Positions 4,108 to 35,619 of a stretch of 42,114 nucleotides of DNA are shown piece by piece. The notes under the pieces are model-generated. The model was given only the letters and a program-made list of their open reading frames with translations, was not told the origin of the DNA and made no database searches. How positions within the stretch are numbered: position 1 is the stretch's first letter; the number at the start of each line of letters is the position of its first letter. The DNA lies in IMG/VR virus record IMGVR_UViG_2561511241_000009, positions 1 through 42,114 of that record; one strand, written 5' to 3'. This DNA comes from a virus (taxonomy: Duplodnaviria > Heunggongvirae > Uroviricota > Caudoviricetes). The translations under genes were made by a program, and so were the position numbers.

Positions 4108-4151
4108 TCGATGTTAGTAACTTCAATCCTATAATTCTTGAAGATAAAAAA

Positions 4152-11312: not shown

Positions 11313-13787
11313 TTATTGCGGAGTGACATCCTGAGGTCGCCACCAGTATGTCTGGTTAAACTCTTTCTTCGAACGTTGCTCCATTTTACGCAAATAGCCT
11401 GGTGAAAAATACTCCTGCATCTGATTAAAGATCATGTGATCGAGAGCCGCCTTCAAGTACCAGAGATTCGCACCAGGCATCAAACCTTTCCCAAGCTTAA
11501 CCAGATCACCACCAGTCTGCTCATTCTTCCCTTCCACAGCATTTAACGGTATGCCCTGAGCAATCTTCACTACGTCATCAACCAGACCAGCTACCGGGCC
11601 AAGCATCGACGCTAGTGCGCCGCTCCCGTACCTGGTGTGGTCAGAGAAAAGAAAATCACCATACAACCCTGCCCCACCACCTTTTAAAAATGCATTTATC
11701 CAGAATTTAACCATGTTGTCACCGGTCATTTCTTTTGGATTTCTCCCATTAATAAGATCAGTAATCTGCATGGAAAGAGCACCAAGCATGGTTGTGCTTG
11801 CTAAAAACGTTGCTATATATGCCGCACGCCCACCAGCAGACGGCATCCCCATAGCTCTATGCCAGTGACGCATAACTACCGAGATAGGGAACGATTTAAA
11901 CAGGAAAACACTTCTCGTTAATTCACCTTTCCATGTTCCACGCTGAAGACCAGACCCTACGAACATCCGTTCACGTGCGCCCGGTGTAATAACAGCCATA
12001 TCAACTTCTTCAGTTACGGCACCGAGCAGTTTACGCATTGCCTCAAATTTCACACGTTCAGGCTCACCAAGATGTTTAACTGCTGAATCAGGGATACGCA
12101 TAATGCTTTCCGGTGTCAGCATCGTATTATTACCGTTCCCCCAGTCCTCCTGTTGCGCCAGCTTCCATACGCTCCAGTCTGTGTCAGTAATCCCTTTGCT
12201 TTTCAGGATACGAAAATCATAGTCATCGAGGCTACGAAGGTCTGGTGTCCGTGACACTACTTCTCCCAGGCTTCCCATCATGGTTACGCCATAGGCGCGC
12301 TTGTGCGCATCTGACCATGCTGTAAGCCCACTGGCACGCATTACCGCCGTTGCCGCCCAACGAGACACTGACGGCCCCATATTATCCATCGCCCAGCGGT
12401 TAACGCTGCCAAGTAGAGATTCCATCGCCAGACCAGCGCGGCGCGCCCGCGCAAGTTCTGTACGGTTCGTTGGGTCCATAGCTTCAAGCTGGTTGCGGAA
12501 TAACTGGTTCATTGGAAGGTTGGTAACCTTCGCAGACAGATACATGGTTCCAAGATCAGAGAACGATGACAGCAACGCGGATCCGAGTCTGCTGGCAACC
12601 AGCCAGTTGCGGATATTGTCAGACCATCGCGCGATGTGCGGATTCGCTACAGGCTGTGTCTTTCCGGAAATAAAGTTGTACAGGTTCTCTGTTTTGTTCG
12701 CCAGCCGCTCGACTTTACCGGTTTTACTCGGGTTAGCTGTTGCCGTTTCTGCCTTAACCTGATCAAGAAGGGAGCGGAAAACATGATCGGGGTTTGGACC
12801 ATATGTTTCCACCAGTGCAATATCTTTACTGATACCTTCCAGGTGACCGACCATGATTTCCCATAGAGAGCGATCGCCATAAAGTTGCTGATATTGCAGA
12901 TAGGAATCTGCATCTTTGAAATGTATCTGTCGTGATGCATTACCACGGTTAGCACGTGCGCCGGAAATTCGCATTCCGGTATCAGTAAGCTTATTCAGCC
13001 CACCAGTAGCGATCGTGTTATAAGCCTCTCCAAGAAATGCAGACAACTCGGCATCGTTCATCAGTTGTCCATCGGCTCGGATATAATATTTGCGATCCAG
13101 CTTACCTATAACATCGCTAACCCACTTATCCTTTGATACCGCCCCAACCTTTTCCATAGAATGATGTTGAGGGATCCCCCAGTTTTCGAGATAGCCAATG
13201 TCCCCACCAGCATCATTAAACCGGCGGCGCAGTAGCTCTGTCACTTCTCTCCACGCCTTAGCACCTTTTCTTGCTTTAGCATTGCCAGTATTTTGCCCCC
13301 GCATTTCATATACCAGGTCACGTACGCCCGCTTCATCTTCAAACAGACCAAAAAAGCGAGGATCAACTGCTTCGAATGCCTCCTGCAATTGACTCAATGC
13401 ATAATCACGGGTGGCTTTTGTTCTGGATTCAACAGAGAGGAAATTCGATTTACCGTCTGCATTAAAAGCAATAGTACGGTTAAGAGCGCCAAGTTTCCCA
13501 TCAGCCCCTTGATAGCTATTGATAAATTTATCCAATCTCTGACGTGCGGCTATAGTGAGGGCCACACGACGTTTCTTTAATGCCGCTTCTCGCTGTAATT
13601 CTTCAGATGCCAATTGTGCTGCACGATATAGCCGCTCTGATTCGGAAAGTTGTCTCCACGACATCGGGTCATCACGAGCAATGGAGCGCATATTTCGATA
13701 AATGCGGTCTTCAATGTTCTGTATTTCTCGCGCCGTTAACGTGCGCTGCGCCGCCTGCTGGACCGCTTGTATACATTCCTGTCTCAT
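11313..13787 (-). CDS. large internal virion (core/ejection) protein, 824 aa
   Basis: One of three consecutive large structural-module genes between tail tubular genes and tailspike, as in T7-like/epsilon15-like podoviruses. Confidence 0.5.
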   Translation of the reverse strand: MRQECIQAVQQAAQRTLTAREIQNIEDRIYRNMRSIARDDPMSWRQLSESERLYRAAQLASEELQREAALKKRRVALTIAARQRLDKFINSYQGADGKLGALNRTIAFNADGKSNFLSVESRTKATRDYALSQLQEAFEAVDPRFFGLFEDEAGVRDLVYEMRGQNTGNAKARKGAKAWREVTELLRRRFNDAGGDIGYLENWGIPQHHSMEKVGAVSKDKWVSDVIGKLDRKYYIRADGQLMNDAELSAFLGEAYNTIATGGLNKLTDTGMRISGARANRGNASRQIHFKDADSYLQYQQLYGDRSLWEIMVGHLEGISKDIALVETYGPNPDHVFRSLLDQVKAETATANPSKTGKVERLANKTENLYNFISGKTQPVANPHIARWSDNIRNWLVASRLGSALLSSFSDLGTMYLSAKVTNLPMNQLFRNQLEAMDPTNRTELARARRAGLAMESLLGSVNRWAMDNMGPSVSRWAATAVMRASGLTAWSDAHKRAYGVTMMGSLGEVVSRTPDLRSLDDYDFRILKSKGITDTDWSVWKLAQQEDWGNGNNTMLTPESIMRIPDSAVKHLGEPERVKFEAMRKLLGAVTEEVDMAVITPGARERMFVGSGLQRGTWKGELTRSVFLFKSFPISVVMRHWHRAMGMPSAGGRAAYIATFLASTTMLGALSMQITDLINGRNPKEMTGDNMVKFWINAFLKGGGAGLYGDFLFSDHTRYGSGALASMLGPVAGLVDDVVKIAQGIPLNAVEGKNEQTGGDLVKLGKGLMPGANLWYLKAALDHMIFNQMQEYFSPGYLRKMEQRSKKEFNQTYWWRPQDVTPQ

Positions 13788-13792
13788 TTAAT

Positions 13793-15595
13793 TTAACCTC
13801 TCAAGAAACACGCCACAGCGACATCAAACAGGCTGGAATCCTGTATTGCCTGCTCACTTTCCCTGTTCGCTTCATCCAGTACTTCACGCGCGCTGCGCGA
13901 TTGTGGATTACCATCATCATCCAGCACGGTGATTATCATGTCCGGAGATTCAAGCAGCGAGTCTTCAGCTATACGCAGATCAATATCTCCTGCCGGATCT
14001 GCCATCATTTTTTGTTCTGTCTGTTGCAATATCTTACCGGGCTCAAAAGGAGCTACTTCGTCTGGCGTCCTGACCTCTGCTGTTTTATAGAATGAAACAG
14101 CCTGAGCATTAAGTTCACTTTCTGCCTGCTGTCGTCGTGCCAGTTCTGCTCGAGCTTCAAAAAACTGACCGCCAGGCTCATGCGGTGCCAACGCGTTACG
14201 GGAAAATTCCAGGCGCTCTTGTGCCTGCCGGATTCGTTGGTCAATATCGCGAAGTCTGACCTGTTTATCTGATCGAGCACGAGACAAAGCTTTACCGCTA
14301 CCGGTTGGCTCTTCTGCAAGAATTTGTGCGCGCTGTTCAGTGAGATTTTCAATAATTCGTTGGCTATTAGCGATTTCAGACTGGTAAACCTGTCTATCGC
14401 CACGCGGCAAAAGCTGCGCGGCCTGTTCTTCAAGCAACCGATTTTCTATAGCGCGCGCCGTTACTCCATCATCTACAGATGACAGAGCCTCATTAACTGC
14501 CTGAGACAGCAGACTCTTGCGCCCAAGAATTTCACTGAAAGATGCAGACTCAACAATGCTGGCAACGTCTACAGGTCTCCCCTCGCTAACATCAGACATA
14601 GCTTTTCTCAGAGCCTGAATGTGAGAATTGCGCGAAAGCACGTTGATCGGCACGCCTGGCGCAATATCAATTTCAGCATGATGAGCGGCATTCGCCGCCA
14701 GTGCAGCATCAACATCAACTGGTGAAAAATTTGGTGCGCTTGTAGACTCGCCGCGAGAGTTAATAAATCTGCCGACACCACCAAACGCCACCCCAAGAAC
14801 AGCATCAATAGCAATTGCCTGTCGATCCAACACATCATACTGGTTAGCCATTTCGCTATAGCCACCATCACGAAGCGTTTTTGCAGTAAGCCCACGCTGT
14901 GCCATACCGAACGCAATATTTGTACCTGCGGCATAGGCAATATCTGGCGTTGCACGTACTGCTGTTGCTGCGGCGCGTCGCACTGAACTTTCACCCGTCC
15001 GCGCAAGCTGAGCCGCCACACCTTCCGCCAGCGCACCGCCAGCACGTAACCCGAGGCTCATTGGGATCAGTGTTCCGGCACCAGCAGTAATACCCTGCAC
15101 TAATCCTGCTTCCTGCGCCGTCCTGAAATCAACACCCTGTGCTGTCAGCCGTTCAAACTCAGAAAAACCCTGTAGCGAAGTTACCGCCGCTGCACCTCCG
15201 ACCGGACCACCGAGCGTTGTACCGACAACAGCCTGCCCGCCCATATCGAACAACCCATAAAGAACCTGCCCGGCGGTTCCGGTTGTCGCGGCATCAGGCG
15301 TCAGCCGCTTAACCTGCTGCTCTGCTAGTTTTCTCTGCTCGGCAATGTATGAAACTGAAGTGTCATTGAGCGAGGTGTTTTCGTTAACAAACTGAGCAAT
15401 CGGGGATACGATTTTATCCATCCCTGCCCATAGCAACTGGTCTGGCTTTGCCACCAGCCCGGAGTACAAACCAGACAATGCCGCTCCTACAGCATTGTCG
15501 AAAAAACCAACATCGCTGTTAAAGCCAGCTGGATTTGATGCTGCTTCGTCAAGCTGCTGATTCTGGTTTACTGGATTAAGGCCAAAGTAACTCAT
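13793..15595 (-). CDS. internal virion (core/ejection) protein, 600 aa
   Basis: Ala/Gly-rich, coiled-coil segments; start overlaps upstream gene stop. Confidence 0.5.
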   Translation of the reverse strand: MSYFGLNPVNQNQQLDEAASNPAGFNSDVGFFDNAVGAALSGLYSGLVAKPDQLLWAGMDKIVSPIAQFVNENTSLNDTSVSYIAEQRKLAEQQVKRLTPDAATTGTAGQVLYGLFDMGGQAVVGTTLGGPVGGAAAVTSLQGFSEFERLTAQGVDFRTAQEAGLVQGITAGAGTLIPMSLGLRAGGALAEGVAAQLARTGESSVRRAAATAVRATPDIAYAAGTNIAFGMAQRGLTAKTLRDGGYSEMANQYDVLDRQAIAIDAVLGVAFGGVGRFINSRGESTSAPNFSPVDVDAALAANAAHHAEIDIAPGVPINVLSRNSHIQALRKAMSDVSEGRPVDVASIVESASFSEILGRKSLLSQAVNEALSSVDDGVTARAIENRLLEEQAAQLLPRGDRQVYQSEIANSQRIIENLTEQRAQILAEEPTGSGKALSRARSDKQVRLRDIDQRIRQAQERLEFSRNALAPHEPGGQFFEARAELARRQQAESELNAQAVSFYKTAEVRTPDEVAPFEPGKILQQTEQKMMADPAGDIDLRIAEDSLLESPDMIITVLDDDGNPQSRSAREVLDEANRESEQAIQDSSLFDVAVACFLRG

Positions 15596-23398: not shown

Positions 23399-24391
23399 TT
23401 ACACCACGCGGGCTTCTGTTTCCAGAAGCGCATCAGTTTCACGGATTGGTACACCACGGAATGAAGTCCACCACTCGCCTTCTGTCTCTTTTACGCTGAT
23501 CGCCAGAGATGTTTTCTCCAGAGATTGCAGATCAAGAGCCTGGCCTACAGTGCGGTTCATGTAGAACACCGGGCGACCCATGCCACGATTTGGAATGCGA
23601 TGCAGTGCTTTAACCATCAACTTCGCAATATTTGCGGCAGAGGAAGGTTCTGAAAGATTGCTGACATCGATGTTTGCAATGCGAACAACATAACGCCAGT
23701 CACGCAGAGCAAGTCCGTTATCCCATTTGTAATGGGTACGGTAGCCTTCGTACTTGCCGCCATTAACATCTTCCAGTGTCACCTGGCCTTTATCTTCCAT
23801 CTGAATGCCAGCCTTCTGCCCTTTCGGGAAGATGCCATGCACGGTGTTTTCGCCCCACACCACTAACCAGATGGAGGTGTTATCTGTACCCGTGCCACCA
23901 GCATCAATGATGTTCTGAGCATTACCCGCAGACAGGCTGGAATAGCGGGAGGACAGTCCCATAAACTGCTGAGGGTTAACGCTGGAATCACCATAAAATA
24001 GCGTCTGCGCCATCTGCTGATTCATCGCTTCAATAAATGCGCGGTCTTCAGACAGGCGGAATTCGGCGGTATTGCCGTTCAGATCAGCCAGTGACTTATC
24101 GACTTCAGCATAGGTTTCCAGCATGCCAACGGAATCGGTTACCTGCACTGTGGTTGATTTGCTTGGCTGTACGCCATAGTTCAGCAAACGCCAGGTAGCT
24201 GAAGGTAAACCAGAACGAATGGTGGTTCGGTGTCCGGTAGGAAGGTTCCCTTCGACAAAAAGCATATCCTGAAGGATCGGGTTAGTTTGACCGAGAAGCT
24301 CGATAATCTTATCGACTTTCCCGTTTGGATCGACGCGCTTACCCCAGTCAGCCAGCGTTAGCGCAGTTAAGCCTTTAACAGCCATTGTCAT
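23399..24391 (-). CDS. major capsid protein (330 aa)
   Basis: Size and position after scaffold gene; no family motif verified. Confidence 0.7.
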   Translation of the reverse strand: MTMAVKGLTALTLADWGKRVDPNGKVDKIIELLGQTNPILQDMLFVEGNLPTGHRTTIRSGLPSATWRLLNYGVQPSKSTTVQVTDSVGMLETYAEVDKSLADLNGNTAEFRLSEDRAFIEAMNQQMAQTLFYGDSSVNPQQFMGLSSRYSSLSAGNAQNIIDAGGTGTDNTSIWLVVWGENTVHGIFPKGQKAGIQMEDKGQVTLEDVNGGKYEGYRTHYKWDNGLALRDWRYVVRIANIDVSNLSEPSSAANIAKLMVKALHRIPNRGMGRPVFYMNRTVGQALDLQSLEKTSLAISVKETEGEWWTSFRGVPIRETDALLETEARVV

Positions 24392-24399
24392 TTCCTCTC

Positions 24400-25101
24400 T
24401 TATTTGCCATAGAGCACTTCGGCCGCACTACGCTGGCCTTCATTACCACCGGTGACCATGCCATCTTCAGACATCGCCTTTCCGATTTTCACGAACGTTT
24501 TGACCAGATCAGGGTGATTACCCAGCCCGGTGGTGTTCAGATATTCTTTGAGTTCAGGTGTCCCGAACTGGTCAAGCGCACGCTGTGCGGCGCTAAGGTT
24601 AGAAATCAACTTGTCGCCACCGATTTCTTTGTCAGCTTTTACATCAGCAGCCCACTGCTCGGTTGTTTTCTGCCAGGCTTCTGCCTGGCGCTGCTGAACA
24701 CCTGCCAGAATCTTCGGATAAGCATCAACCAGCTTTTGCGCTTGCTCGTTGGTCAGGTTTAGTTCTCGCGCCACCGGCTCGAATTCCTTCAACGCTTCTG
24801 TATCCAGCTCTACGCCTTCGGCAGCCTGAAACTCGTACTTCTCCGGCGCACCATCCGGTTTATCGCCGTCCTTTTTTTCACCCTGCTTATCGCTTTCAGA
24901 CTTTTTGTCATCAGCAGGTTTATCGCCATCAGCAACAGGTTGCGGCTTATCACCTTCTTGTTGTGATGGATCACCAACTGGAGCATGGTTATCACCTGCA
25001 GGCGCTGATGGTTCTGACGCAGCCGGAGCTGCTCCACCATCGACTGGTTGCTCATTGCAAAGACGGCGATACAGCAAACGCTCAAATAAATTCATGATCA
25101 C
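24400..25101 (-). CDS. scaffolding protein
   Basis: Low-complexity acidic/Pro/Ala-rich N-half, helical C-half; between portal and capsid genes. Confidence 0.6.
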   Translation of the reverse strand: MIMNLFERLLYRRLCNEQPVDGGAAPAASEPSAPAGDNHAPVGDPSQQEGDKPQPVADGDKPADDKKSESDKQGEKKDGDKPDGAPEKYEFQAAEGVELDTEALKEFEPVARELNLTNEQAQKLVDAYPKILAGVQQRQAEAWQKTTEQWAADVKADKEIGGDKLISNLSAAQRALDQFGTPELKEYLNTTGLGNHPDLVKTFVKIGKAMSEDGMVTGGNEGQRSAAEVLYGK

Positions 25102-25394
25102 TCCTGTTCACTGGCCTCTTTGGCCATCTTCAAATACTGTTCAGGGCAATGCGCCATAACGCGCTGAAACAGTTCCAGCGCCAGATTGCGTTGCCCCTCA
25201 TTAAATGCCATTGCCATAGCATCCATCGGAGAGATAGCGGAAAACACACGGCCTTTCTCCAGCACAGACCAGACAACGCGACGCCCCTGTTCACTGCTCA
25301 TGACAAAGCGAATGTCATCAATTTCACGCTGTGCCATGTCACGTTGCTTACGGGCGTTTTCTTCTTTCAGTTGATCGTCTTCGTAATCTGTCAT
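25098..25394 (-). CDS. hypothetical head-assembly protein (98 aa)
   Basis: Overlapping start/stop with portal and scaffold genes. Confidence 0.45.
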   Translation of the reverse strand: MTDYEDDQLKEENARKQRDMAQREIDDIRFVMSSEQGRRVVWSVLEKGRVFSAISPMDAMAMAFNEGQRNLALELFQRVMAHCPEQYLKMAKEASEQE

Positions 25395-27070
25395 TGTGAT
25401 TGCCCACCCTGACCACTAACTGCATTCGCCATAGCTGACAAAACACTCGGATCCGAAGTTTTAGCTTCGCTTAGCGTCTTGGCACCCTGTGCCGCCGCCA
25501 TCCCCATGGCCATCATTTGTTGCTGCTGTTGTTGCTGTGCCCGTTGCTGGCGAGCCTGCTCAACCTGTTCCTGCGGAACAATGACGGTTGGAGACACTCC
25601 GGACATATCAGCGAATGCATCGATCGCCTGATCAACGTTGAGTTTGTCGAGAGCTTCTGGTTTCGCTTGCGCAAGTTGACCAATGAAGTTAACCGTGGAC
25701 GCCAGACTGGACAGGCCGATAGACTTCTGCGCCTGAGCCATGACGGAAATGTATTCGACCTTCAGGGGCATGCCTTCCATCGCGTCAGGCGGTGGCGGCA
25801 ACATGTTTTTACGCACCATCATCGAGAAAGCGCGGTCAATGAGAGGATTAAGACATTCGTCGTTCAGACGCTCCAGAACCGGCCCCAACATCAGAAGTTT
25901 TTCTTCTTTCATTTCGATCACCGCTTCAACAGGCATCGAGCGGGTATTGATGTTCTGCAACATCATGAACAGATCGACAAAGTAGGCGCTGTTAATGATT
26001 TGACGAGTGTCCTGAATGTCTGCCACCAAATCTGCTGTACTGGGGTTAACCAGATAAGCAGGCCTGAAACCATCCTGACCAGTAATCTGATCGATATACG
26101 TGATGTCGCCAGGAAGAAGGGAGGCACGCTGATTCTTGAGGGAAATCGGAGCAACCATCGGCGGATTGGTGGCTTTATCAATCAACTGCGACTTGCGCTT
26201 CTGGAGAAGCTGCAATGCCTTAACAGGTCCAAGCGCCAGCATGCCCGGGCATGATGATCCATAAACATCTTCGCCGTTAACTTCCCAGCGCGGAGCCATA
26301 ATTGGAAACTCATCGAATCCGGACTCACGCAACAACTTGTCGTTATCGCCACCAACCTCGTAATAAACCGATTTGAATGGCTTGTTCTTGCTATCCAGCT
26401 TCGATGTATCGCGGTCAATGTTCGGGTAAACCGAATGCATCACTTCAATCCACTTCTCGTAGGTGCCGCTTTCCCACATGCTTTTTACGGATTCGCTGAC
26501 GTTATTTAGCCCGAACTCCTGAACAAGCTGACGAACAGTCATAGAGAACTTGCGAAAACAGGTGTCCACACTGCCACGAGGTGAGTTAGCCAGGTAGTAA
26601 CTGCCTATCGTGAATGGCATTGTGCGAATGATGTCCTCGTCATCCTCCAGCACTGCCATTGCACCAGTGCTGTATGTGCCGAGGCTTCCGTATAACTGCG
26701 GCAGCGACTGATAGAGATTCGACTTATTGAACATATCGTTCATGCGGTTCTGCACCGCCTCAAGCCACAACTTAACAGGGCCATAATCCATCATTTCAGG
26801 ATCTGGCGTAGCCAGGCGAAACCACGGACGCGCGGGGCTTGTGATGCCTGACATCATGCCGCTGGCGAGAGTGCGCGCCGCCATAGTCCCGGTCGAATCA
26901 ATAATGCGTGTATTGCGTCGATCGTTACGGTTGACCTCAGAAGTCAGAAAGCGGGAACCACGCGGGTTGATGTAATCACTCAACTCGCGCCAGTGCGGCT
27001 CGAACGACTGACGCTCGCTTTCAAGTTGTGCGAACTGTTTGTTCAATCGCTCTTTAGTTGTTTCCGCCAT
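25391..27070 (-). CDS. portal (head-tail connector) protein, 559 aa
   Basis: Size and position between terminase and scaffold; GGAG RBS; Q-rich C-terminal tail. Confidence 0.7.
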   Translation of the reverse strand: MAETTKERLNKQFAQLESERQSFEPHWRELSDYINPRGSRFLTSEVNRNDRRNTRIIDSTGTMAARTLASGMMSGITSPARPWFRLATPDPEMMDYGPVKLWLEAVQNRMNDMFNKSNLYQSLPQLYGSLGTYSTGAMAVLEDDEDIIRTMPFTIGSYYLANSPRGSVDTCFRKFSMTVRQLVQEFGLNNVSESVKSMWESGTYEKWIEVMHSVYPNIDRDTSKLDSKNKPFKSVYYEVGGDNDKLLRESGFDEFPIMAPRWEVNGEDVYGSSCPGMLALGPVKALQLLQKRKSQLIDKATNPPMVAPISLKNQRASLLPGDITYIDQITGQDGFRPAYLVNPSTADLVADIQDTRQIINSAYFVDLFMMLQNINTRSMPVEAVIEMKEEKLLMLGPVLERLNDECLNPLIDRAFSMMVRKNMLPPPPDAMEGMPLKVEYISVMAQAQKSIGLSSLASTVNFIGQLAQAKPEALDKLNVDQAIDAFADMSGVSPTVIVPQEQVEQARQQRAQQQQQQQMMAMGMAAAQGAKTLSEAKTSDPSVLSAMANAVSGQGGQSQ

Positions 27071-27084
27071 TTCAATGACTCCGG

Positions 27085-27291
27085 TTACTGACCAAGCAGC
27101 GTTTTACCGCTGGTATTAGCGGTTGATGTGTCGCCCTGAGAACCGGTAAGCAGCGTAGAACTACGACCAGCAGCAGCGCGACGGCGACGAGTTTCTTCGT
27201 CGCGGGCATCAACAACGGCGGCATCCTGCTCCTGTGGTGCTGCCTGAACTTCTGGTGTTGCAGGCACTGATGGTGAGCTACCCATGCACAT
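27085..27291 (-). CDS. hypothetical small disordered protein (68 aa)
   Basis: Has the same ACGGAGTCATTGA-ATG RBS context as the portal gene. Confidence 0.4.
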   Translation of the reverse strand: MCMGSSPSVPATPEVQAAPQEQDAAVVDARDEETRRRRAAAGRSSTLLTGSQGDTSTANTSGKTLLGQ

Positions 27292-27381
27292 ATCAATGAC
27301 TCCGTACGCAATTAAATTATTACCAATTTAACCACATATGATTTATTTATCGTAGGTAGTTGACATTTAACGCACGAATTA

Positions 27382-27396
27382 TTACCTTTCAGGTAA
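27382..27396. promoter_or_regulatory. operator-like palindrome TTACCtttcaGGTAA overlapping a TTGACA promoter
   Basis: TTGACA at 27360-27365; perfect palindrome 17 bp downstream where a -10 would lie. Confidence 0.55.
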
Positions 27397-27718
27397 GCAT
27401 AGAGTGCATTCCTGTTATTAACCTGACTGGCTTGTCGTTAAATTGAACAGGTGGAGTGAGCTTTTATTTTGAGCAGTACGGCGTATGGCACATGCGCCGA
27501 TAGCGGTCTGGATACGTTTAAGGGGCACCCTCCCTTGCTCGGGCAAACGAACCAGGTAGCCGGAATGTGCAAGTCGAGCGGTTTTATGCCGCGCACGGGG
27601 ATTCACCATCCCGGCGATTCGGTGTGACGCCTCGGAAGAGACGAGGGTACAACGATGAGAGCATTTATGGAGCCGCGACAAAGTGTGGTGCCTTAACAGG
27701 CTAAGTGCTCTCAGCGTT

Positions 27719-27795
27719 GTGGCATTAGCTCAGTCGGACAGAGCAACCGCCTTCTAAGCGGTTGGTCGCAGGTTCGAATCCTGCATGCCACGCCA
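27719..27795 (+). tRNA. tRNA-Arg (anticodon UCU)
   Basis: Manual fold: acceptor GTGGCAT/ATGCCAC, D-stem GCTC/GAGC, anticodon stem ACCGC/GCGGT with loop CTTCTAA, T-arm GCAGG-TTCGAAT-CCTGC, discriminator G, encoded CCA. Confidence 0.9.
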
Positions 27796-27838
27796 GAATC
27801 ACGCCTAAGGACCGTGATGCCAGAAGTTCCAGGGGCTT

Positions 27839-27880
27839 GGCGGTGATGGTTTCCCTTGAAGGACTATCACCGCCCTTTTT
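27839..27880 (+). terminator. rho-independent terminator after tRNA
   Basis: GGCGGTGAT...ATCACCGCC 9-bp stem then CTTTTT. Confidence 0.6.
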
Positions 27881-27958
27881 ACAGCAGGACGCCATTGCGA
27901 TGACTTCATGCTGTAAACCCGTACAGCCACGGAAGGCATAACTCATTGCTTCCAGTTC

Positions 27959-27982
27959 GCCCGGTTCGCCGGGCATTTTTTA
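27959..27982 (+). terminator. second hairpin with T-tract, abutting the RBS of the 27998 gene
   Basis: GCCCGG-ttcg-CCGGGC then ATTTTTT. Confidence 0.55.
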
Positions 27983-27997
27983 AGGTGAGATTAGACT

Positions 27998-28369
27998 ATG
28001 AGTGACAAAGACATTGAATCTGAAATTCAGGCTAAAGGTTTAGCCGCGCCGCGCGTTACGCCAGACCATATCGAGAGCATTATTGCTCAGGAGGCATATT
28101 TCACAGCAGAAGATGGTGCCTTTGGCGTAGCCATAAAAGCGAAACATACTGGCGGAGAGGTAAACTACCAGCCGCACGAATCACTTTCTCTGCTGACGTT
28201 CTGCGTCCTGGTGCTGCGCAACGGCTTCACCGTCACCGGAGAGAGCGCCTGTGCAAGCCCGGAAAACTTTGATGCAGAAATTGGTCGGAAGATTGCCCGA
28301 CAGAATGCTGTAAACAAAATCTGGATGCTTGAAGGTTACTTGCTGAAGCAGAAGTTAAGCGAGCAATAA
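27998..28369 (+). CDS. hypothetical phage protein (possibly N4 Gp49 / Sf6 gp66-like family)
   Basis: 123-aa ORF on the opposite strand to its neighbours; family assignment from memory only. Confidence 0.45.
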   Translation: MSDKDIESEIQAKGLAAPRVTPDHIESIIAQEAYFTAEDGAFGVAIKAKHTGGEVNYQPHESLSLLTFCVLVLRNGFTVTGESACASPENFDAEIGRKIARQNAVNKIWMLEGYLLKQKLSEQ

Positions 28370-28459
28370 CACCGTGACATATCACAAACAGCCAGCCTAT
28401 GAGCTGGCTTTGTTTTATCCTCATCAGAGGATATCAACGACATTATCCCCTCAAGCGGA

Positions 28460-29935
28460 TTAAGCATAGGGATCGTAATCTGTGATGGCCTTGCCTTGCT
28501 GGTTCTGCTGCCCGGGAAGTCGCAGGCGCTTTGACACCGGGAAAGCAAACGTCAGCAGTAGCGCATCGCCTTTACCAGGCGAACGCCCAAGCCGCTCCTT
28601 GATATCTTCCTTCGGTTCGATAACGATTTTACCGTCCACTCGAACTTTGTACTCTGCCGCAGACAGGTCGTCCGCTGTTTCCTGGTCATCCAGCATGCCG
28701 CCCAGCCTCAGCCATGTCTTGCATGAGTTGAACATCTCCCCACGCTTGTTGAGCATCTGCGGGTCAGTAGACGCGCCACCGAACGGAACAAGTTGCCATG
28801 TACGACCCCATCCGTCACCGATTGATTTCAGACCGGTTCCGTAACCGAAGTCGATGAACACTGCGTCAGCCTGGTACTGGTCTTCAAAGTCAGCGATACG
28901 CTTCGCCATTATCAGATCGTCAGTGGTCTTGTTGCCAGTCCACAGCACCTTACTGTGCAGCCCCTGCCGCAGGTATATCACAGCGTCATCAACGCCGGAG
29001 TATGCCGGGTCAACGCCGATTATCACCGGAGCGTGTGCCACCTGCGCAGCAGTTACCACCCGTTTCATTGCCTCGTCAGTAAGACCGGTAGGGATAAACT
29101 GCAATTCAGATGCATCAGGAAATATGCCGCGCACACGGATTTTAACGAAGTCGCTGTCTTCCCCGTAGTCATCAACCCATTTCTGTAATTGCTGCTTGTT
29201 AGTACCTTCCACCGTCCGGCTGTCAATCTGTGCAGTTTTCCAGCGGTGTTTATATTTGCGGAAACATTCGCGGAAACGCCCGGTGTTACGCGTCGGGTTC
29301 CCGAACGCCACCCAGATGATTTCGGTGTCTTCGTCCGTAAGCGCACCCTCGGCAACTTCCCACACCAGATCCGCAATGTTCGACGCTTCATCAAACACCA
29401 CGATGATGCGTTTGCGCTCGTTGTGTAGTCCCGCGAACGCCTCAGTGTTGTGCTCAGACCAGGGGATTGCGTCAGCGCGCCACCGCTTGTCGTGCCCAGG
29501 GTCATTGCTGTACATCGCGGTAGCGGTACAGGTAAACCAGTCTTTCGTGATAGCAAGATTTGACCACTTGATAATTTCCGGCCAGGTCTTCGTTCGTAGC
29601 TGGTTGTCGGTGTTGGCGGTCACCACCACCTTGCAGTCCTCGCAGGTCGACATGCCCCAGTTAATCAGCATTGAGATGAAAGCTGACTTGCCGATGCCGT
29701 GGCCGGATGCGCGGGCCAGCATCAACGGCTGGTGACGCGTCGCCGGGTTCTGCAGGTGATCGCGTATCTCGCGGAATGCGTCTGCCTGCCACTTACGCGG
29801 ACCGGTGGCGTGCGCCAGCTCTGTGCCTTCCTCGCCCCACGGAAACGCATACAGCGCATAGCCCAGCGGGTCATACGTGAACGAGGCGATATCCTCGACG
29901 AGTTGCTCTTCCGGCGACATGGCTGCGGCTGTCAT
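28460..29935 (-). CDS. terminase large subunit
   Basis: Walker A-like ASGHGIGKS; C-terminal nuclease-like region; 491 aa; ATGA overlap with small subunit. Confidence 0.85.
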   Translation of the reverse strand: MTAAAMSPEEQLVEDIASFTYDPLGYALYAFPWGEEGTELAHATGPRKWQADAFREIRDHLQNPATRHQPLMLARASGHGIGKSAFISMLINWGMSTCEDCKVVVTANTDNQLRTKTWPEIIKWSNLAITKDWFTCTATAMYSNDPGHDKRWRADAIPWSEHNTEAFAGLHNERKRIIVVFDEASNIADLVWEVAEGALTDEDTEIIWVAFGNPTRNTGRFRECFRKYKHRWKTAQIDSRTVEGTNKQQLQKWVDDYGEDSDFVKIRVRGIFPDASELQFIPTGLTDEAMKRVVTAAQVAHAPVIIGVDPAYSGVDDAVIYLRQGLHSKVLWTGNKTTDDLIMAKRIADFEDQYQADAVFIDFGYGTGLKSIGDGWGRTWQLVPFGGASTDPQMLNKRGEMFNSCKTWLRLGGMLDDQETADDLSAAEYKVRVDGKIVIEPKEDIKERLGRSPGKGDALLLTFAFPVSKRLRLPGQQNQQGKAITDYDPYA

Positions 29936-30528
29936 TCTTCACCACCAGCCTGCTCTATGACGCGGCGCCGGGCGGCGGCCATGCGGTCGGCGATGGTGAC
30001 CGTGCCGGAAACCTCCAGGCGCTCTTTGAACGCGTTAACGTCGACGTGCTTACCAATCAGTTCGAGGTTCTTCATCTTGTCAGGCCATTTAATTTTTTTG
30101 AGGATTGTCTCTATCGAATCCTCGTTCATGTTCATGATGGTCGATGACAGATCAAAGCCACTAAGCGTAGTGCGCCAGATTTTCGGCCACTCGCGGATTG
30201 GCTTAAGACTCCCATCGTCGTTGAGGATATCAATCACGTCCATCTGGTCGATCTCCACCAGGCGCATGAGAACGTAATCAGCACTGACGCGCATTCGTTT
30301 GTTGCGCTCCTCCATCAGCTCGGCAATCCGTTTTTGAATGCGTTCATCGCGCATCATGACACTGGCTTTAACTGCCGCTGTATTTGGGGAGAATCCTGCG
30401 TTAATCGCTGCCTGAGTCTGGTTTTCAGGCGTTTTGATGTATGACTGGCAATAAGCCTCCTGCATTGCTGTTAGTGGCTTAAATTGCGTTGATTTGCGTT
30501 TATAGGTTTTAGGTTCAGCAGGCATCAT
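29932..30528 (-). CDS. terminase small subunit
   Basis: Directly upstream of and overlapping large subunit; GGTGG RBS before Met at 30528 (track ORF extends to 30606). Confidence 0.65.
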   Translation of the reverse strand: MMPAEPKTYKRKSTQFKPLTAMQEAYCQSYIKTPENQTQAAINAGFSPNTAAVKASVMMRDERIQKRIAELMEERNKRMRVSADYVLMRLVEIDQMDVIDILNDDGSLKPIREWPKIWRTTLSGFDLSSTIMNMNEDSIETILKKIKWPDKMKNLELIGKHVDVNAFKERLEVSGTVTIADRMAAARRRVIEQAGGEE

Positions 30529-30646
30529 AACCACCGTGGTAATAGTTACCGTTGTGGTAATAGTACCATGCAAAATAAAGCCGCCATAGTTGGCGGCAGT
30601 ATTCAAAACCCATCAAATTCATCATGCATAATCTACTCGTGACATG

Positions 30647-30985
30647 TCACACTATTAATTTCGTTTCATGCCAGCCTTTAGTCACCCAGCATTGCGAGTC
30701 ACCATTACACGGGCATGAATTCACAGGAACTCTCTCGCCGCACTTACCGCAACGTTTTCTGCTGATCGATTTTATACGCCCGTGCACGCGTGCATCATCC
30801 TGGCGGATCAGTAACGCTATATACTCACCAAATTCGTAAGGCGCACGCCCGGGGCGACGCGTGGCACAGTTACGCTCCAGCATTTCAATTTCCTGAGCAT
30901 CAAGCACAATCTCCAGCTTACGCACACCAGATGCAGCTTGTCTGGCTCTCTGAGCGGCTTTGCGCTCTGCTGCTGATTTAGCCAT
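30647..30985 (-). CDS. hypothetical protein with basic N-terminus and Cys-rich C-terminus (possible regulator)
   Basis: CxxC...CPC cluster suggests a zinc ribbon; no His, so not HNH. Confidence 0.4.
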   Translation of the reverse strand: MAKSAAERKAAQRARQAASGVRKLEIVLDAQEIEMLERNCATRRPGRAPYEFGEYIALLIRQDDARVHGRIKSISRKRCGKCGERVPVNSCPCNGDSQCWVTKGWHETKLIV

Positions 30986-31331
30986 TCTGATTTTCCTGCA
31001 TCATGAGAAATACAATCATGGCGGCTCGGAGTGGATTATTCGCATGAAAGCAAATGTTCTCGGCATTAAAAACAGCTGACCACTCACCGCGAGATTGGTG
31101 GCAGGTTAGACTGATTTTATTATCAACAATAATAGGCCATGCATCCGATGGATTATTGCAGTAGTCAGGTAAAGGGTTTAATGGCTCAAAAGTTGTATCA
31201 GCATTTCCGTAATACCATTTGTTGGTGTTATTCCCTGATGTTTCCGGTTTACATGCCCAAAGGCCTTTAAAAATTATGTCTCCTACCATTCTGTTAATTT
31301 CAAAATCACTTAACTGTGAATAGTCCATCAT
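30978..31331 (-). CDS. DUF2591-like phage protein
   Basis: Starts MMDYSQLSDFEINRMVG; ATGA overlap with upstream gene supports start at 31331 (track ORF over-extended to 31475). Confidence 0.45.
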   Translation of the reverse strand: MMDYSQLSDFEINRMVGDIIFKGLWACKPETSGNNTNKWYYGNADTTFEPLNPLPDYCNNPSDAWPIIVDNKISLTCHQSRGEWSAVFNAENICFHANNPLRAAMIVFLMMQENQNG

Positions 31332-31870
31332 TTCGCCTCCTGCGGCGGTTCTGGCAGCGGCATCCAGTACAAGGCGTTCCCTAACCACGATAAAGTGCCG
31401 TCGCTCAACTCCACGTATTCCCCTTGTACCTGTCCTGCCATATACTCGCCGTGCTTTGAATAAATTAAAATCCAATCATCTTGAGGGGGCATTCGCTCAC
31501 TACAGCTTATCCAACCATCCGGAGTTACCGGATGGGGTCCAGCGAACTCGGGCATGTCAGGACCTTTTCTGATAGCTTTAGCCAGCTCCAGCGGGTCATC
31601 GTAAAGCCAGTCGCCAGTTTGTGGGTGATTTGCTTCTGCAAGCTGCGCAGCCCATTCAAGACCATCTTTTTGACCTTGGAGATAATCAAGCGGCAACTCT
31701 TCATGATTACTTGCAGGTTCTGCACTATCAGCTTCGCGCCGCTTCTGTAGCTCTGCTGCCATCGCTCTCACGACTTCAACTGGTGCCCTTGCAGCAAACT
31801 CTATGTTGGTGATCAGCTCATTAAGATATTGCTCGCTGGGATACTGTTTCTTATTGGTAATAGTGGTCAT
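31328..31870 (-). CDS. DUF551-like phage protein
   Basis: C-terminal DGW..W..LP.PP signature typical of DUF551. Confidence 0.45.
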   Translation of the reverse strand: MTTITNKKQYPSEQYLNELITNIEFAARAPVEVVRAMAAELQKRREADSAEPASNHEELPLDYLQGQKDGLEWAAQLAEANHPQTGDWLYDDPLELAKAIRKGPDMPEFAGPHPVTPDGWISCSERMPPQDDWILIYSKHGEYMAGQVQGEYVELSDGTLSWLGNALYWMPLPEPPQEAK

Positions 31871-32382
31871 GCCGCGTTTCCTTCTTTCTTATTAACAATT
31901 ACACCGTCATATATTTCATTAAGGTGCCCTCTCAACTCCATGCGCCTTAATGCAGATAACATGTAATCGCATTCAACCTGCTTATTTCCAGTAAATGGCT
32001 TATCGTCAGGATTACCCCAACAGCAATTACCATTGGGCCACCCATGTACTTTCCGTACTCTTCCGTTAATAACGTGAAGTAATCCCCAGCCGGGAGGTAA
32101 ATCCTCAACTGAAATAATTCCCGGCTCACTAATAAAGAATCGCCAGTCGCCCATGCCAAGTGAGGGATTTTTACGGAAACGCTTTTTTCTATCTGCCAAC
32201 AAGTCAGCACGAGAACACTTCGCCTCTATCAGGCATGATGCTGAATTTCTGAATCCCATAGCATCTGGCTGTTCTCCGGTACTGGTTACAGCAACAAAGC
32301 GGTCATGAAAGCAAACCTTGAACCCGTTGCGCTTAAGGAACTTGTACGCAATCTGACAGAGTTCGCGGTGTGTTAACGCCAT
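31867..32382 (-). CDS. PD-(D/E)xK nuclease-fold-like hypothetical protein
   Basis: Candidate catalytic pattern PDAMGF...CLIEAKCS (D...ExK). Confidence 0.35.
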   Translation of the reverse strand: MALTHRELCQIAYKFLKRNGFKVCFHDRFVAVTSTGEQPDAMGFRNSASCLIEAKCSRADLLADRKKRFRKNPSLGMGDWRFFISEPGIISVEDLPPGWGLLHVINGRVRKVHGWPNGNCCWGNPDDKPFTGNKQVECDYMLSALRRMELRGHLNEIYDGVIVNKKEGNAA

Positions 32383-32386
32383 ATCA

Positions 32387-33478
32387 TCACTCTCCTTTGA
32401 TGCGAATGCCTGCGGCGCGGATTGCAGCGATGACTTCAGAAACTTTGTATGCCATTACCGTTTGGTAATCATCGTGAAAATCTGTTCGATGAAGCATGCT
32501 GCTACGTTCCGGGAGCGATATTTCCCGAGCATCCAGTTCCTTAACGTGTTCCTCCAGTTCGTAGACCCTGCATTGTTCTCTATCATCAATCAGATATAAC
32601 CCAAGACATTCGCTTTCTACCCAACCGCCAAAATCATGATCGTAACGCTCACATGAAAACTCACCGTCACCGTCCTTTGTTGGAATGGTGTAACTATCTA
32701 ATGGGCCACCATATGTCGGCACATTTCCCAATGTTGGATGCTCAATCCACATGAAAAATGCACGTCCGGTTATTGGGCAAATATCTGGCCGCCATTGGTT
32801 ACGAACAGCCTTGGTTTCGGATAATTCTTCAGCGTGTTGTTTTACTTCCTCAAGCTCAACGCGCAGCTTCCCTACCGTAAGCGCAATATCCTCGTTCTCC
32901 TGGTCACGGCGTTTGATGTATTGCTGGTTTCTTTCCCGTTCATCCAGCAGTGCCAGCACGGTTTCTGGTCCGGTCAGAAAAGACTTATTGATAAATCCGT
33001 GATTGAACGCAGCAGCAAGACGGCTTGCGGTGTAGTTAATCCCCTCGTTGCGTGCCTCCGCACGTATTTCAGCCAGGAAAGCGTCGGTGGCTGTGGTTTC
33101 GATATCGTTAATTTCAGGAAGAATCTCTTCCCATGTAGCGATATCGCCATTCAAATGCCACCCGGCAATTCCACTGGAGTTATCCGCAACACTCCGAACG
33201 GCTTCAATAGTTTCATGCATTGCCGCATTCTCCGCCGCCAGCGCCGAAAACTTCTCGTGTGCCAACTTAACAGCCGAATCAGCCTGCTTAATTGACTCAA
33301 TCGCTTTCTGCTGGCCTTCGGCCAGCGCATTAGCACGCGCCAGTTGCACTTCCAGTTGCGTTGCCAAATCGCTGAGCAGCTTTGCCACACTGCGCATATC
33401 AACGGCACCACATTCAGCTTTCAGTTCCGAAGCCATCTCATGCCCGGCGGCAACTAACCCTTTGATATTACTTTCCAT
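32387..33478 (-). CDS. Ead/Ea22-like protein
   Basis: Coiled-coil N-half, acidic Trp/Cys-containing C-half; position in early region. Confidence 0.45.
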   Translation of the reverse strand: MESNIKGLVAAGHEMASELKAECGAVDMRSVAKLLSDLATQLEVQLARANALAEGQQKAIESIKQADSAVKLAHEKFSALAAENAAMHETIEAVRSVADNSSGIAGWHLNGDIATWEEILPEINDIETTATDAFLAEIRAEARNEGINYTASRLAAAFNHGFINKSFLTGPETVLALLDERERNQQYIKRRDQENEDIALTVGKLRVELEEVKQHAEELSETKAVRNQWRPDICPITGRAFFMWIEHPTLGNVPTYGGPLDSYTIPTKDGDGEFSCERYDHDFGGWVESECLGLYLIDDREQCRVYELEEHVKELDAREISLPERSSMLHRTDFHDDYQTVMAYKVSEVIAAIRAAGIRIKGE

Positions 33479-34004: not shown

Positions 34005-34787
34005 TTACTTGATAAATCCTGCCGCCTTTCCCCGCCTGTATTCCTCCATCAGCCACTGCGCCGGTGTTATTCCCCCCAGGGTGGCGGCGTTAGGCATGCA
34101 CCCGAAACTTCGCCCTGGTGGATGGTAAACGTCTCTCCCTGTGTCCGGAGGCGTACTCATGGGTTCTGGCTTTGCCTGTATGCTGATCACCGGATCGGGT
34201 ATCTGCTGTCCGGAAGCCACCTTTTTCGCCCAATCATCGAGCAGCCTGCGCGCGTGTTTCTCAACCTCAATCTCGCTAAGCTGGCGCTGATACATTGCGC
34301 GGCGGGTATCACATACAACCCAGTACATAACCGGATGTCGCCACGGGAATCTTTCTGGACCACCAGGATATAAACTTTTTTCCTTGCTGTACCGATGAAA
34401 CTCCGCCATCACATCGTCAATGGTGACGCCAAGAACCATCTTGCTGTCTTTGCACCACTTGATGAATTGCCCAGGCGACGGCCAGAACGGAGATTCACTG
34501 GCGCGGGCGTGGCGCATACCAGCGTTAACCTGTTCCATTGTAGTGATCCCATTCTCCAGAAACGCAAGCATCCATTGTTTTCGAAATTCGTTTAGCTTTC
34601 CCTGTTCGCTGATAGCAGCGATGCTGCCTGGAAATGCAGCCTGCAACTGGACAAACATTTCGTTGAAAATTCTTGCAACCTGCTCCTTCTTTGCCCTTTC
34701 ATCGTCAGCAGAAGCAACCACCGTCGAGTGGTCATGCCCACCACGAAAGCGATAGTACTCATTAAGAAGTTCTGGAGTTGATTTCAT
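34005..34787 (-). CDS. lambda P-like replication protein (helicase loader)
   Basis: Segment FRKQWMLAFLENGITTMEQVNAGMRHAR...PSPGQFIKWC matches recalled lambda P core; GAGG RBS before Met at 34787. Confidence 0.65.
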   Translation of the reverse strand: MKSTPELLNEYYRFRGGHDHSTVVASADDERAKKEQVARIFNEMFVQLQAAFPGSIAAISEQGKLNEFRKQWMLAFLENGITTMEQVNAGMRHARASESPFWPSPGQFIKWCKDSKMVLGVTIDDVMAEFHRYSKEKSLYPGGPERFPWRHPVMYWVVCDTRRAMYQRQLSEIEVEKHARRLLDDWAKKVASGQQIPDPVISIQAKPEPMSTPPDTGRDVYHPPGRSFGCMPNAATLGGITPAQWLMEEYRRGKAAGFIK

Positions 34788-35619
34788 CCCACACCTCATC
34801 TATCCAGTCAGTGTTATGCCAGTCAAGGCTCTTTCTGACTTCACCTGATTTCTGTCTACAGAACTGGATGCGCCTTGCCAGCTTCTGCTCCCACTGCGCC
34901 TGATGGTATGCCTTACCCTCAGCCATCCAGTAAATTCTGAACTCTGCAAGTTCCTGTGCCGTTGGCAGACTGTCCAGGTAGATCCCCTGCAATGAGCTTT
35001 TCCGAAGAAAGTCATCTGATGGCTGCCATTGTTCATGCATGACAAATTTGCCTAATTGCCCTGGCCCACCAGGAGGAACAAAGTTATTCATCACGGCGTT
35101 GTTTGCGCCGGGGTCATGAGGCACAGAATCCCCGTTTTTTGTCCTGCTCTCCCTCTCTTGGTTAAATGACTGGTTATATGACTGGTTCTGGATCCCGTTT
35201 TTGGGATCATTCAACATCCCGTTTTTGGGATCATTCAACATCCCGTTTTTGGGATCATTCAACATCCCGTTTTTGGGTATATTCCCGTTTTCGGTAACAT
35301 TACCGTTTTCGGGTTCATTGCCCCCCTCCCGGTTGCCTTTAATGTTCCCGTTTTTGGTTATATTAAGAGAGAAAACCCGCACTCTTTTTGTCGCTCCCTT
35401 TCTCTCTCCGGTATCTGAAATAAGCCCCATTTTCATGAGCGATATAAGCCCGGCCTGCACGGTTTTTTTATTCAGACAAGTGTCTTTAACGAGACGTTCT
35501 ATGCTGGGGTAGCAGAGGTTATATTCATCGGCTCTGTCAGCCATCGAGAGCAGTATGAGCTTTAATGACGAGCTACCTGGATCTGTCTCCCAGGCCCAAT
35601 CTGTTGCATGTCTGCTCAT
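34762..35619 (-). CDS. lambda O-like replication initiator with internal iterons
   Basis: N-terminal wHTH-like domain, repeat-encoded linker (PKNGMLND x3), C-terminal domain; directly upstream of P-like gene. Confidence 0.6.
   Translation of the reverse strand: MSRHATDWAWETDPGSSSLKLILLSMADRADEYNLCYPSIERLVKDTCLNKKTVQAGLISLMKMGLISDTGERKGATKRVRVFSLNITKNGNIKGNREGGNEPENGNVTENGNIPKNGMLNDPKNGMLNDPKNGMLNDPKNGIQNQSYNQSFNQERESRTKNGDSVPHDPGANNAVMNNFVPPGGPGQLGKFVMHEQWQPSDDFLRKSSLQGIYLDSLPTAQELAEFRIYWMAEGKAYHQAQWEQKLARRIQFCRQKSGEVRKSLDWHNTDWIDEVWDEINSRTS
35192..35320. repeat. iteron array (candidate replication origin) inside the O-like gene
   Basis: Three perfect tandem 24-bp units ATCCCGTTTTTGGGATCATTCAAC (35192-35263) plus degenerate copies; each unit contains the palindrome ATCCC-N6-GGGAT. 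Confidence 0.65.

Follow-up and report, generated by a model that had tools for sequence, protein, structure and literature searches.

A predicted structured RNA of phage early leaders that travels independently of tRNA genes

The IMG/VR virus record IMGVR_UViG_2561511241_000009, all 42,114 nucleotides (nt) of which were analyzed and are hereafter called the window, contains a small plus-strand island (27360-28409) within the opposite-strand head-gene region of an epsilon15/phiV10-like prophage. The island consists, in order, of a promoter with an operator, a weak hairpin, a conserved RNA of ~245 nt (27479-27722; the module), a tRNA-Arg(UCU) gene, two intrinsic terminators and a gene of the Pfam family PF13876. 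This locus raises the question of whether the long structured stretch ahead of the tRNA belongs to the tRNA gene, as the first-pass annotation of this DNA supposed when it described a tRNA with a structured leader, or is an element in its own right and, if so, what it does. We conclude that 27479-27722 is very probably a real, conserved, noncoding structured RNA family that is independent of the tRNA, and we discuss below, with much less assurance, how it might act.

Identity and distribution of the module

If the module were part of a tRNA precursor, it would be expected to keep the company of its tRNA. Across 132 related loci, tRNA-Arg(UCU) was immediately downstream of the module in only ~30 and tRNA-Ile(CAU) immediately upstream in ~25, all of the latter P1-type, and ~75 loci had no tRNA within 700 nt of it. 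Since most related loci lack a tRNA and the P1-type loci carry a different one, the module is not a tRNA leader, and the structured region is better described as self-contained. The first-pass annotation had also suggested that the leader could be a noncoding RNA; this was right in spirit, in that the region is a conserved noncoding module with covariation across its relatives, and its statement that ~320 nt hold no credible open reading frame (ORF) agrees with the relatives, in which no frame is open across the leader.

Several further results bear on the noncoding nature of the module. No reading frame was open across it in all relatives, the shortest open stretch over a near-invariant segment of 19 nt (the 19-mer; Table 1) being 5-27 codons in every frame. 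Differences in module length were not multiples of three, and a variable insert within it ranged from 26 to 50 nt. A coding reading that included the minus-strand ORFs at 27418-27681 and 27725-27976, for which no Pfam match was found, was rejected. Among the 4,227 models of Rfam 15, no covariance model matched 27397-27718, only the tRNA reaching threshold, and in 27250-28050 at E <= 10 the best match besides the tRNA (E = 0.013) was the antisense of the tRNA itself. The module was not annotated as RNA in any member examined, nearly all records having either no annotation or a doubtful "hypothetical protein" at this place. Likewise, no description of it was found in the searchable literature on P1 ban/trnI, phiV10/epsilon15 and put-like RNAs, in which subscription papers are incompletely covered. 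Judged from sequence comparison, the module thus appears to be a structured RNA of phage early leaders that has no Rfam family and moves independently of the tRNA.

The module is widespread among phages of enterobacteria. BLAST with the leader matched 86 phage records. The region itself is 98% identical to Escherichia phage phiV10 and its relatives (genus Uetakevirus, epsilon15-like) and up to 99.9% identical to prophages in complete E. coli genomes; outside the phiV10-like group, BLAST identity over ~27478-27725 was 71-84%. Matches in these other groups included lambdoid phages (mEp460, cdtI, 2H10, Ayreon, Stx2c- and Stx2a-converting phages, and mEp390), P1-type phages (P1, P7, D6, SJ46, and RCS47), several Klebsiella phages, one Enterobacter phage and one phage listed under Stenotrophomonas. 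The 19-mer was exact in 14 of 15 loci fetched from BLAST hits and was present in at least 119 IMG/VR contigs. A scan of one genome per species recovered it from 24 genomes, 22 of which were Enterobacterales; the other two, metagenome bins labelled Bacillota and Oscillospiraceae, were taken to be mis-binned. The core was found in 591 plasmid records, mostly non-mobilizable and ~90-100 kb in size, i.e., P1-like, and 1,088 of 5,426 complete E. coli genomes matched a wider query (27300-28000) that includes the tRNA. An independent retrieval motif, composed of the loop of hairpin H1 plus AGCGGTC, returned essentially the same loci, and only five full-length members deviated from the 19-mer, each by 1 nt. 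Therefore, the invariance of this segment is not a search artefact. In prophage CPS-53 of E. coli K-12, the downstream yfdP/yfdQ-type genes are present and the module was not found, so no K-12 transcriptome data are usable for it.

The loci fall into three recurring settings, namely lambdoid early operons, the P1-type trnI-ban region and the epsilon15/phiV10-like island. Each of them is, or seems to be, an early operon under repressor control in which long stretches are untranslated, often with terminators after them, and we regard placement of the module in such an operon as likely. The nearest upstream gene on the same strand encodes a cI-type repressor (S24 peptidase plus helix-turn-helix) in 62 of 135 loci, or in 67 when the second ORF upstream is counted. 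An intrinsic terminator lies within 26 nt of the cI stop codon in 47 of 51 distinct gaps, and the module starts 60-120 nt later. In the mEp460 gap, OL-like operator palindromes, whose half-sites are of the type found between cI and cro, precede a promoter of PL type and the module, and a strong terminator hairpin stands between the module and the first early-left gene; in the mEp390 gap, a TTGACA-18-TACATT sequence places the module ~48 nt after the likely transcription start. By analogy, the position of the lambdoid module is that of lambda PL/nutL and HK022 putL. Representatives of the early-left ORFs downstream were tested and showed no N-like Pfam domain, and a 126-amino-acid downstream product had, by eye, no arginine-rich N terminus. 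The terminator of mEp460 ends in a boxA-like string, CGCTCTTTTTACAA, and no boxB was recognized. In P1, the module belongs to the ban operon, which C1 controls, and is placed between trnI and ban, its core starting ~19 nt after tRNA-Ile. A terminator-like hairpin occurred on the same strand within 350 nt downstream in 79 of 127 loci, a raw count, with no matched background, that is compatible both with terminators which polymerase has to cross and with terminators that end the RNA itself.

Fold of the module

The fold was derived by comparison. Helices were drawn by eye on a 92-sequence alignment and their 29 pairs counted. Standard pairs filled 96.6% of the alignment cells, vs. 24-45% when the 3' partners were slid by 1-3 columns. 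Twelve of the 29 pairs change on both sides, in 258 cells as compared with 87 ± 12 in shuffles, and none of 500 shuffles reached the observed covariation score. A covariance model built from the alignment (R1) scored the window copy at 177 bits and relatives at 120-175 bits. Many of the pairs are G-U (e.g., GU in 52 and UG in 90 cells), which would be A-C mismatches on the other strand; therefore, it is the plus strand that is functional.

The individual elements, listed in Table 1, differ in the kind of support that they receive. Helix P2 varies at pair 38-97, which is UA in 49 sequences, CG in 43 and unpaired in none. For pseudoknot PK2, pair 150-170 is CG in 72 sequences, AU in 20 and never unpaired, a pattern that possibly reflects a single evolutionary event. 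A further pseudoknot (PK1) may form between UGUGC (27566-27570) in the 19-mer and GCACA (27488-27492) in the H1 loop; this pairing never varies and so is neither supported nor refuted by covariation. A candidate GCC/GGC pairing (27559-27561 with 27613-27615) likewise involves invariant bases, and a natural variant, GGTAACC, would break a neighboring G-C pair (27558 with 27614 or so). The evidence for helix P6 comes from a comparison separate from the core alignment. The 3' strand of P6 overlaps the tRNA by the first 2 bases of the latter, and the helix is replaced or absent in P1-type and some other members. A single-sequence minimum-free-energy (MFE) fold of 27476-27722 failed to reproduce the covariation-supported core and was only marginally better than shuffles (z = -2.0); the structure therefore rests on comparison rather than on energy.

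Table 1. Features of the island and its flanking genes, in window coordinates
Feature	Position	Strand	Basis or remark
Portal gene	25391-27070	-	Annotation of near-identical prophage
-35 box TTGACA of island promoter	27360-27365	+	Read from sequence; spacing to palindrome kept in relatives
Operator palindrome TTACCTTTCAGGTAA	27382-27396		Overlaps expected -10; TTACC-N5-GGTAA repeated across window
Candidate -10 TACCTT	27383-27388	+	17-nt spacer after TTGACA; inside palindrome
Imperfect leader hairpin	27401-27464	+	MFE fold; lies between promoter and module; weak part
Conserved structured RNA module	27479-27722 (core 27479-27646 plus helix P6)	+	Covariation; model R1
H1 hairpin, 7 bp, loop UGGCACA (27486-27492)	27479-27499	+	97% of cells paired; pair 12-24 GC in 65, AU in 26
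P2 helix, 27508-27511 with 27552-27555, enclosing variable-length insert (26-50 nt)	27508-27555	+	Covariation
Near-invariant 19-mer GGUAGCCGGAAUGUGCAAG (DNA: GGTAGCCGGAATGTGCAAG)	27555-27573	+	Conservation
P3, predicted variable hairpin	27578-27592	+	Differing sequence and length at same alignment position
P4 hairpin, 4 bp, loop UUCACCA	27598-27612	+	Two-sided change in 3/4 pairs; 97.6% of cells paired
Conserved joining strand GGCGAUUCGGUGUGACG	27613-27629	+	Alignment
PK2, GGUG with P4 loop CACC	27621-27624 with 27604-27607	+	Covariation
P5 hairpin, 5 bp, loop GAAGAGA	27630-27646	+	4/5 pairs change on both sides
P6, long helix, 27649-27667 with 27702-27720, branched interior	27649-27720	+	Inverted repeat I1; compensatory variants in other lineages
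tRNA-Arg(UCU) with encoded CCA	27719-27795	+	ARAGORN; Rfam tRNA model
Terminator 1 (predicted), 14-bp hairpin then CUUUUU	27839-27881 (hairpin 27839-27874)	+	Scan; kept in relatives
Additional hairpin between terminators	27878-27917	+	Inverted repeat I2; fold
Terminator 2 (predicted), GCCCGG-UUCG-CCGGGC then AUUUUUU	27959-27981 (hairpin 27959-27974)	+	Scan
Cargo gene, 123 amino acids, Pfam PF13876 (N4 gp49 / Sf6 gp66 family)	27998-28369	+	E = 2.4e-35
Terminator-like hairpin closing island	28390-28409		Scan, called on both strands
Gene beside small terminase subunit	28460-29935	-	"Hypothetical" in near-identical E. coli prophage; "terminase large subunit" in epsilon15

Some loci carry unusual forms of the module. 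Deletion remnants occur in epsilon15 (locus L004, 2544-2637) and in locus L170 (from ~6970 onwards), where H1 and AGCGGTC are kept and the rest of the module and the tRNA are lost; the L170 break joins the 3' half of terminator 1. One IMG/VR contig (L033) has two same-strand copies (3987-4159 and 4794-4964), ~630 nt apart, that flank an opposite-strand ORF of 166 amino acids, an arrangement that looks like a gene cassette inserted by recombination between module copies. In Stx2a_1447 and SPN1S (L008 and L010), the 3' domain, ~10-70 nt after the core, has a T-arm-like GCTGGTTCAATTCCAGAC, which suggests a tRNA fragment.

The plus-strand island and its cargo

The first-pass annotation placed a TTGACA promoter overlapped by an operator palindrome at the start of the island, and comparison bears this out. 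The spacing between the TTGAC box and the palindrome is fixed in 15 of 18 aligned epsilon15-like relatives although the intervening sequence is variable, the other three having an insertion. A generic sigma-70 scan made no promoter call at the island start, owing to the weak -10. There are 13 copies of TTACC-N5-GGTAA in the window (at 8492, 8872, 9940, 27382, 30528, 30546, 33891, 33953, 35916, 36253, 36301, 37013, and 37075) as compared with 0.66 expected by chance, and so, on the sequence, we consider it a genuine dispersed operator of the phage. These palindromes are spread over the genome as are the C1 operators of P1, whereas lambda operators are clustered. Since the operator overlaps the promoter, the island should fire upon derepression; it is probably silent in the lysogen and turned on once repression is lifted.

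Between the promoter and the module lies the imperfect leader hairpin, whose window copy folds no better than shuffles (MFE; z = +0.3) and whose Klebsiella counterpart has greater stability (z = -1.6). It seems to be akin to an opposite-strand stretch of epsilon15 that is annotated as an RNase III site. Hairpins of this kind recur. A unit of ~70 nt that ends in G.GC.CTYYCAG.TGTG flanks the module core on either side, for example in L016 (1813-1885 and 1976-2050), in the Klebsiella locus L009 (~1420-1495) and in the window (27401-27464 and 27649-27722). A strict pattern for this unit gave 28 plus-strand matches, all between -100 and +800 nt from the 19-mer and 27 of them within ~500 nt, and only 2 matches on the other strand. 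P6 itself appears to be one such unit, a similar stretch again being annotated as an RNase III site in epsilon15. In addition, leader GUGCAUUCC (27403-27411) can pair with GGAAUGUGC (27563-27571) of the 19-mer through 9 pairs, including 2 G-U pairs. This pairing appears in the MFE fold of the long transcript and may be either an alternative structure or a coincidence.

Downstream of the tRNA, a terminator scan called 5 sites in the scanned region vs. 1.6 expected, and 27836-27984 folds into five hairpins far better than shuffles do (z = -5.1). The two hairpin/T-tract terminators that had been proposed ahead of the gene at 27998 are thus upheld. The T-run of terminator 2 ends at 27981, 16 nt before the ATG, with the ribosome-binding site (RBS) of the gene right after it, which leaves no room for a promoter. 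A RyhB-like match at 27928-27982 (16.5 bits, E = 3.4) was set aside, as it is merely a hairpin plus terminator 2 with the shape of the 3' end of an Hfq-binding small RNA and is probably not meaningful. The arrangement of terminator 2 followed by cargo precedes different cargo genes in relatives. For instance, the slot that holds the PF13876 gene in the window holds, in Klebsiella phage ST512-KPC3phi13.3 (L009, 2011-2532), a gene for a protein annotated DUF2829, which we take to be the family of the Thoeris anti-defence protein Tad2.

The tRNA was called by ARAGORN as the single tRNA of the window, Arg(tct), with the anticodon at position 35, and scored 73.3 bits with Rfam RF00005 against a threshold of 29; positions 27786-27795 read ATGCCAC-G-CCA, i.e., the CCA is encoded. 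The claims that this is a complete tRNA-Arg(UCU) with its own CCA, and that it is cargo, both stand, the latter since the gene sits, inside a prophage, in a plus-strand island embedded in opposite-strand head genes. In a near-identical prophage of strain EC361, the minus strand carries the portal gene, a 68-amino-acid gene, the gene beside the small terminase subunit and the small terminase subunit itself, and the plus strand carries an annotated "tRNA-Arg" and "Gp49 family protein". The tRNA had also been proposed to decode the rare codon AGA for phage or cargo genes. AGA and AGG are used 7.8 and 5.0 times per 1000 codons in the window ORFs, and E. coli averages are ~2 and ~1 per 1000, respectively. 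Since usage is above these averages, a role in supplementing AGA decoding for the phage is reasonable; it does not extend to the cargo gene at 27998, which contains no AGA and no AGG codon. The two codons occur mainly in 34762-35619 and in two large ORFs, 6360-8387 and 11313-15595, that are probably tail genes, and they are almost absent from the head and terminase genes. About 65 records of Synechococcus cyanophages also matched the query, presumably through the tRNA-Arg(UCU) segment, most of them at 90-95% identity, which is surprisingly close for such distant phages.

Elsewhere in the window, Rfam identified isrK and C4 antisense RNA (66 bits each) as neighbors at 8923-9107, just upstream of a 241-amino-acid ORF (9141-9866). 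This segment resembles a P1/P7-type immI (c4-ant) module, here in an epsilon15-like podovirus, and operator palindromes flank it at 8492, 8872 and 9940.

Possible functions and known systems

What might such an RNA do? The position of the module after early promoters, its fixed orientation ahead of same-strand genes, the long ribosome-free RNA in which it lies and the frequent terminators that follow led us to the reading that it is a cis-acting read-through RNA like put, to which we assign a probability of roughly 0.3. The lack of room for a promoter between terminator 2 and the gene at 27998 was counted in its favor. On this reading, derepression would allow the island promoter to fire and give a transcript that contains the module. 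The nascent RNA would then act in cis on the RNA polymerase that had just made it and let elongation withstand Rho and intrinsic terminators; polymerase would thereby cross the untranslated stretch, the tRNA, terminator 1 and terminator 2 and reach the PF13876 gene. The module would do the job of putL in HK022 and of nutL/N in lambda from the same map position. The tRNA, presumably released by RNase P, would supplement AGA decoding in large, probably tail, genes and in some probably early genes. More broadly, and tentatively, the module might represent a class of phage RNA common to P1, Shiga-toxin-type lambdoid prophages and epsilon15/phiV10-like podoviruses that alone reprograms host transcription or some other invariant host machine; it could then be a second RNA-only solution to antitermination, structurally unrelated to HK022 put.

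A number of observations weigh against read-through in cis, the case for which is purely positional. A second, PR-side copy was not found in any of 27 sources (the window, 23 module-bearing loci with flanks of up to 10 kb, HK022, and epsilon15), there being one copy per locus; only L033 has two, and both are on the PL side, unlike putL/putR or nutL/nutR. The module of P1 is ~2.3 kb from Pban and so is not promoter-proximal, and every gene of the P1 ban operon was scored non-essential in a polar CRISPR interference screen (PMC10695390). Epsilon15 and L170 have lost most of the module and the tRNA, yet L170 keeps terminator 2 directly before its cargo gene. Some lambdoid loci have an apparent convergent-gene terminator within ~20 nt after the core, and many mEp390-type loci lack a clear intrinsic terminator downstream. 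Finally, with 175-245 nt and two pseudoknots, the module is far larger than the ~70-nt put RNA (PMC9378689).

We consider it about as likely that the module is a stable trans-acting RNA; a sensor, a ribozyme and a DNA linker are less likely. It could be cut from early transcripts, by RNase P at the tRNA and by RNase III or RNase E at the flanking hairpins, and bind a conserved host component early in lytic growth. Nucleases, defence proteins, ribosome or tRNA factors, and RNAs would all be candidate targets, and T4 RNAs C and D and P1 C4 RNA possible parallels. The near-invariant, single-stranded 19-mer and the invariant loops, kept across phages that share almost nothing else, would suit such a role, as would the long hairpins on either side of the core and the abutment of the module on tRNAs in two settings, its 3' end touching tRNA-Arg in the window and its P1 core following tRNA-Ile. 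The module also tolerates very different downstream contexts, including convergent genes, has a neighboring slot of variable accessory cargo, e.g., DUF2829 in the Klebsiella relative, and is dispensable in P1 and lost in epsilon15. However, no partner or target emerged, P1 has no terminator or obvious 3' end before ban, and a trans role does not demand strict placement after early promoters and upstream of same-strand genes. The conservation is in some respects that of an aptamer, with invariant junctions, two pseudoknots and variable peripheral stems, and the module is plugged in before different genes (P1 ban, the lambdoid early-left genes, and here the tRNA and cargo), as might be expected of a riboswitch-like leader that senses a ligand or signal and gates the genes downstream. 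By eye, the P1 sequence after the core may even sequester the ban RBS (TCCTGA...TTAGGA). We nevertheless hold this to be improbable, as neither a conserved expression platform nor an alternative pairing was found, lineages differ in their 3' domains and downstream genes, such a switch would be unusual before a tRNA and no ligand candidate is at hand.

A compact pseudoknotted core with invariant unpaired nucleotides, next to a tRNA in two settings, would also be compatible with a self-cleaving or otherwise catalytic RNA that matures neighboring RNAs. Against this, no Rfam ribozyme family matched, most members have no tRNA nearby and E. coli already matures its tRNAs, which makes catalysis distinctly unlikely. 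Selection could instead act on the DNA, the module being a recombination linker or boundary for mosaic module exchange, or a single-stranded DNA signal, with no function as RNA. It does lie at mosaic junctions, the two copies of L033 do flank an inserted opposite-strand ORF, and its identity is unusually high relative to its flanks. But compensatory changes keep the pairing, frequent G-U pairs suit a plus-strand transcript only, and a linker needs neither covariation in a pseudoknot nor a fixed orientation to promoters; accordingly, we give this explanation very little credence. Still less probable is the earlier reading of a precursor specific to the tRNA-Arg gene with incidental hairpins. 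The module is co-linear with the tRNA and no terminator separates them, but the tRNA is absent from most loci and a different one in P1, and the RNA itself is under selection, as its covariation and near-invariant segments show.

If the family is real, as the covariation says, a pseudoknotted RNA of ~180 nt has gone without RNA annotation in every record examined, and its carriers include the much-studied P1, Shiga-toxin-converting prophages and about one-fifth of complete E. coli genomes. In annotation, neither "tRNA leader" nor the spurious hypothetical ORFs of several records should be used for the region. To our knowledge, there are very few natural examples of control of transcription elongation by RNA only, chiefly HK022 put. 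If the module acts in cis on elongation, it would be a second and larger class and a new handle on how nascent RNA deals with RNA polymerase or Rho; if it acts in trans, it would be an early phage RNA aimed at a conserved host target, with a bearing on host takeover and possibly on counter-defence.

The module can be compared with several known phage RNAs. ROOL and GOLLD, phage-associated structured RNAs whose function is unknown, are frequently encoded beside tRNA genes; unlike the module, they are ~580-800 nt long and are in Rfam, and neither matched here. The C4 and isrK RNAs of P1/P7 (RF01695 and RF01394) resemble it in that they are small, are encoded by the same sorts of phage and lie in operons under repressor control, and the window contains both. 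They differ from it in sequence, structure and locus (8923-9107), and their models had no match in 27250-28050. The stable RNAs C and D of T4 (species 1 and 2), the function of which is unknown, arise from transcripts shared with tRNAs, from which the enzymes of tRNA processing release them. The module is similar in that it touches tRNA-Arg here and follows tRNA-Ile in P1, and dissimilar in that most of its members have no tRNA neighbor. The lambda N leader carries an RNase III site, and like the nutL/N leader the module forms part of a long, structured, untranslated start of a PL transcript, its neighboring hairpin being annotated as an RNase III site in epsilon15. In contrast to nutL/N, neither a boxA/boxB pair nor an N-like protein was recognized, and carriers of the module include P1 and podoviruses without an N system.

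The put RNA of HK022 prevents termination in cis and has the beta-prime zinc-binding domain of RNA polymerase as its binding site. It is ~70 nt long, consists of two stems and a short triplex, is present in two copies per genome and acts alone, in cis, on RNA polymerase (PMC9378689). The module, at 175-245 nt, has at least five helices and one or two pseudoknots and, except for the two copies of L033, occurs once per locus. Homology to put was considered and rejected, as model R1 found nothing in the HK022 immunity region (24000-33000) and size, architecture and copy number differ. What the two have in common is their setting. Like put, the lambdoid module lies tens of nt after a promoter just past cI, ahead of terminators and early genes, and the downstream ORF representatives that were tested showed no N-like Pfam domain.

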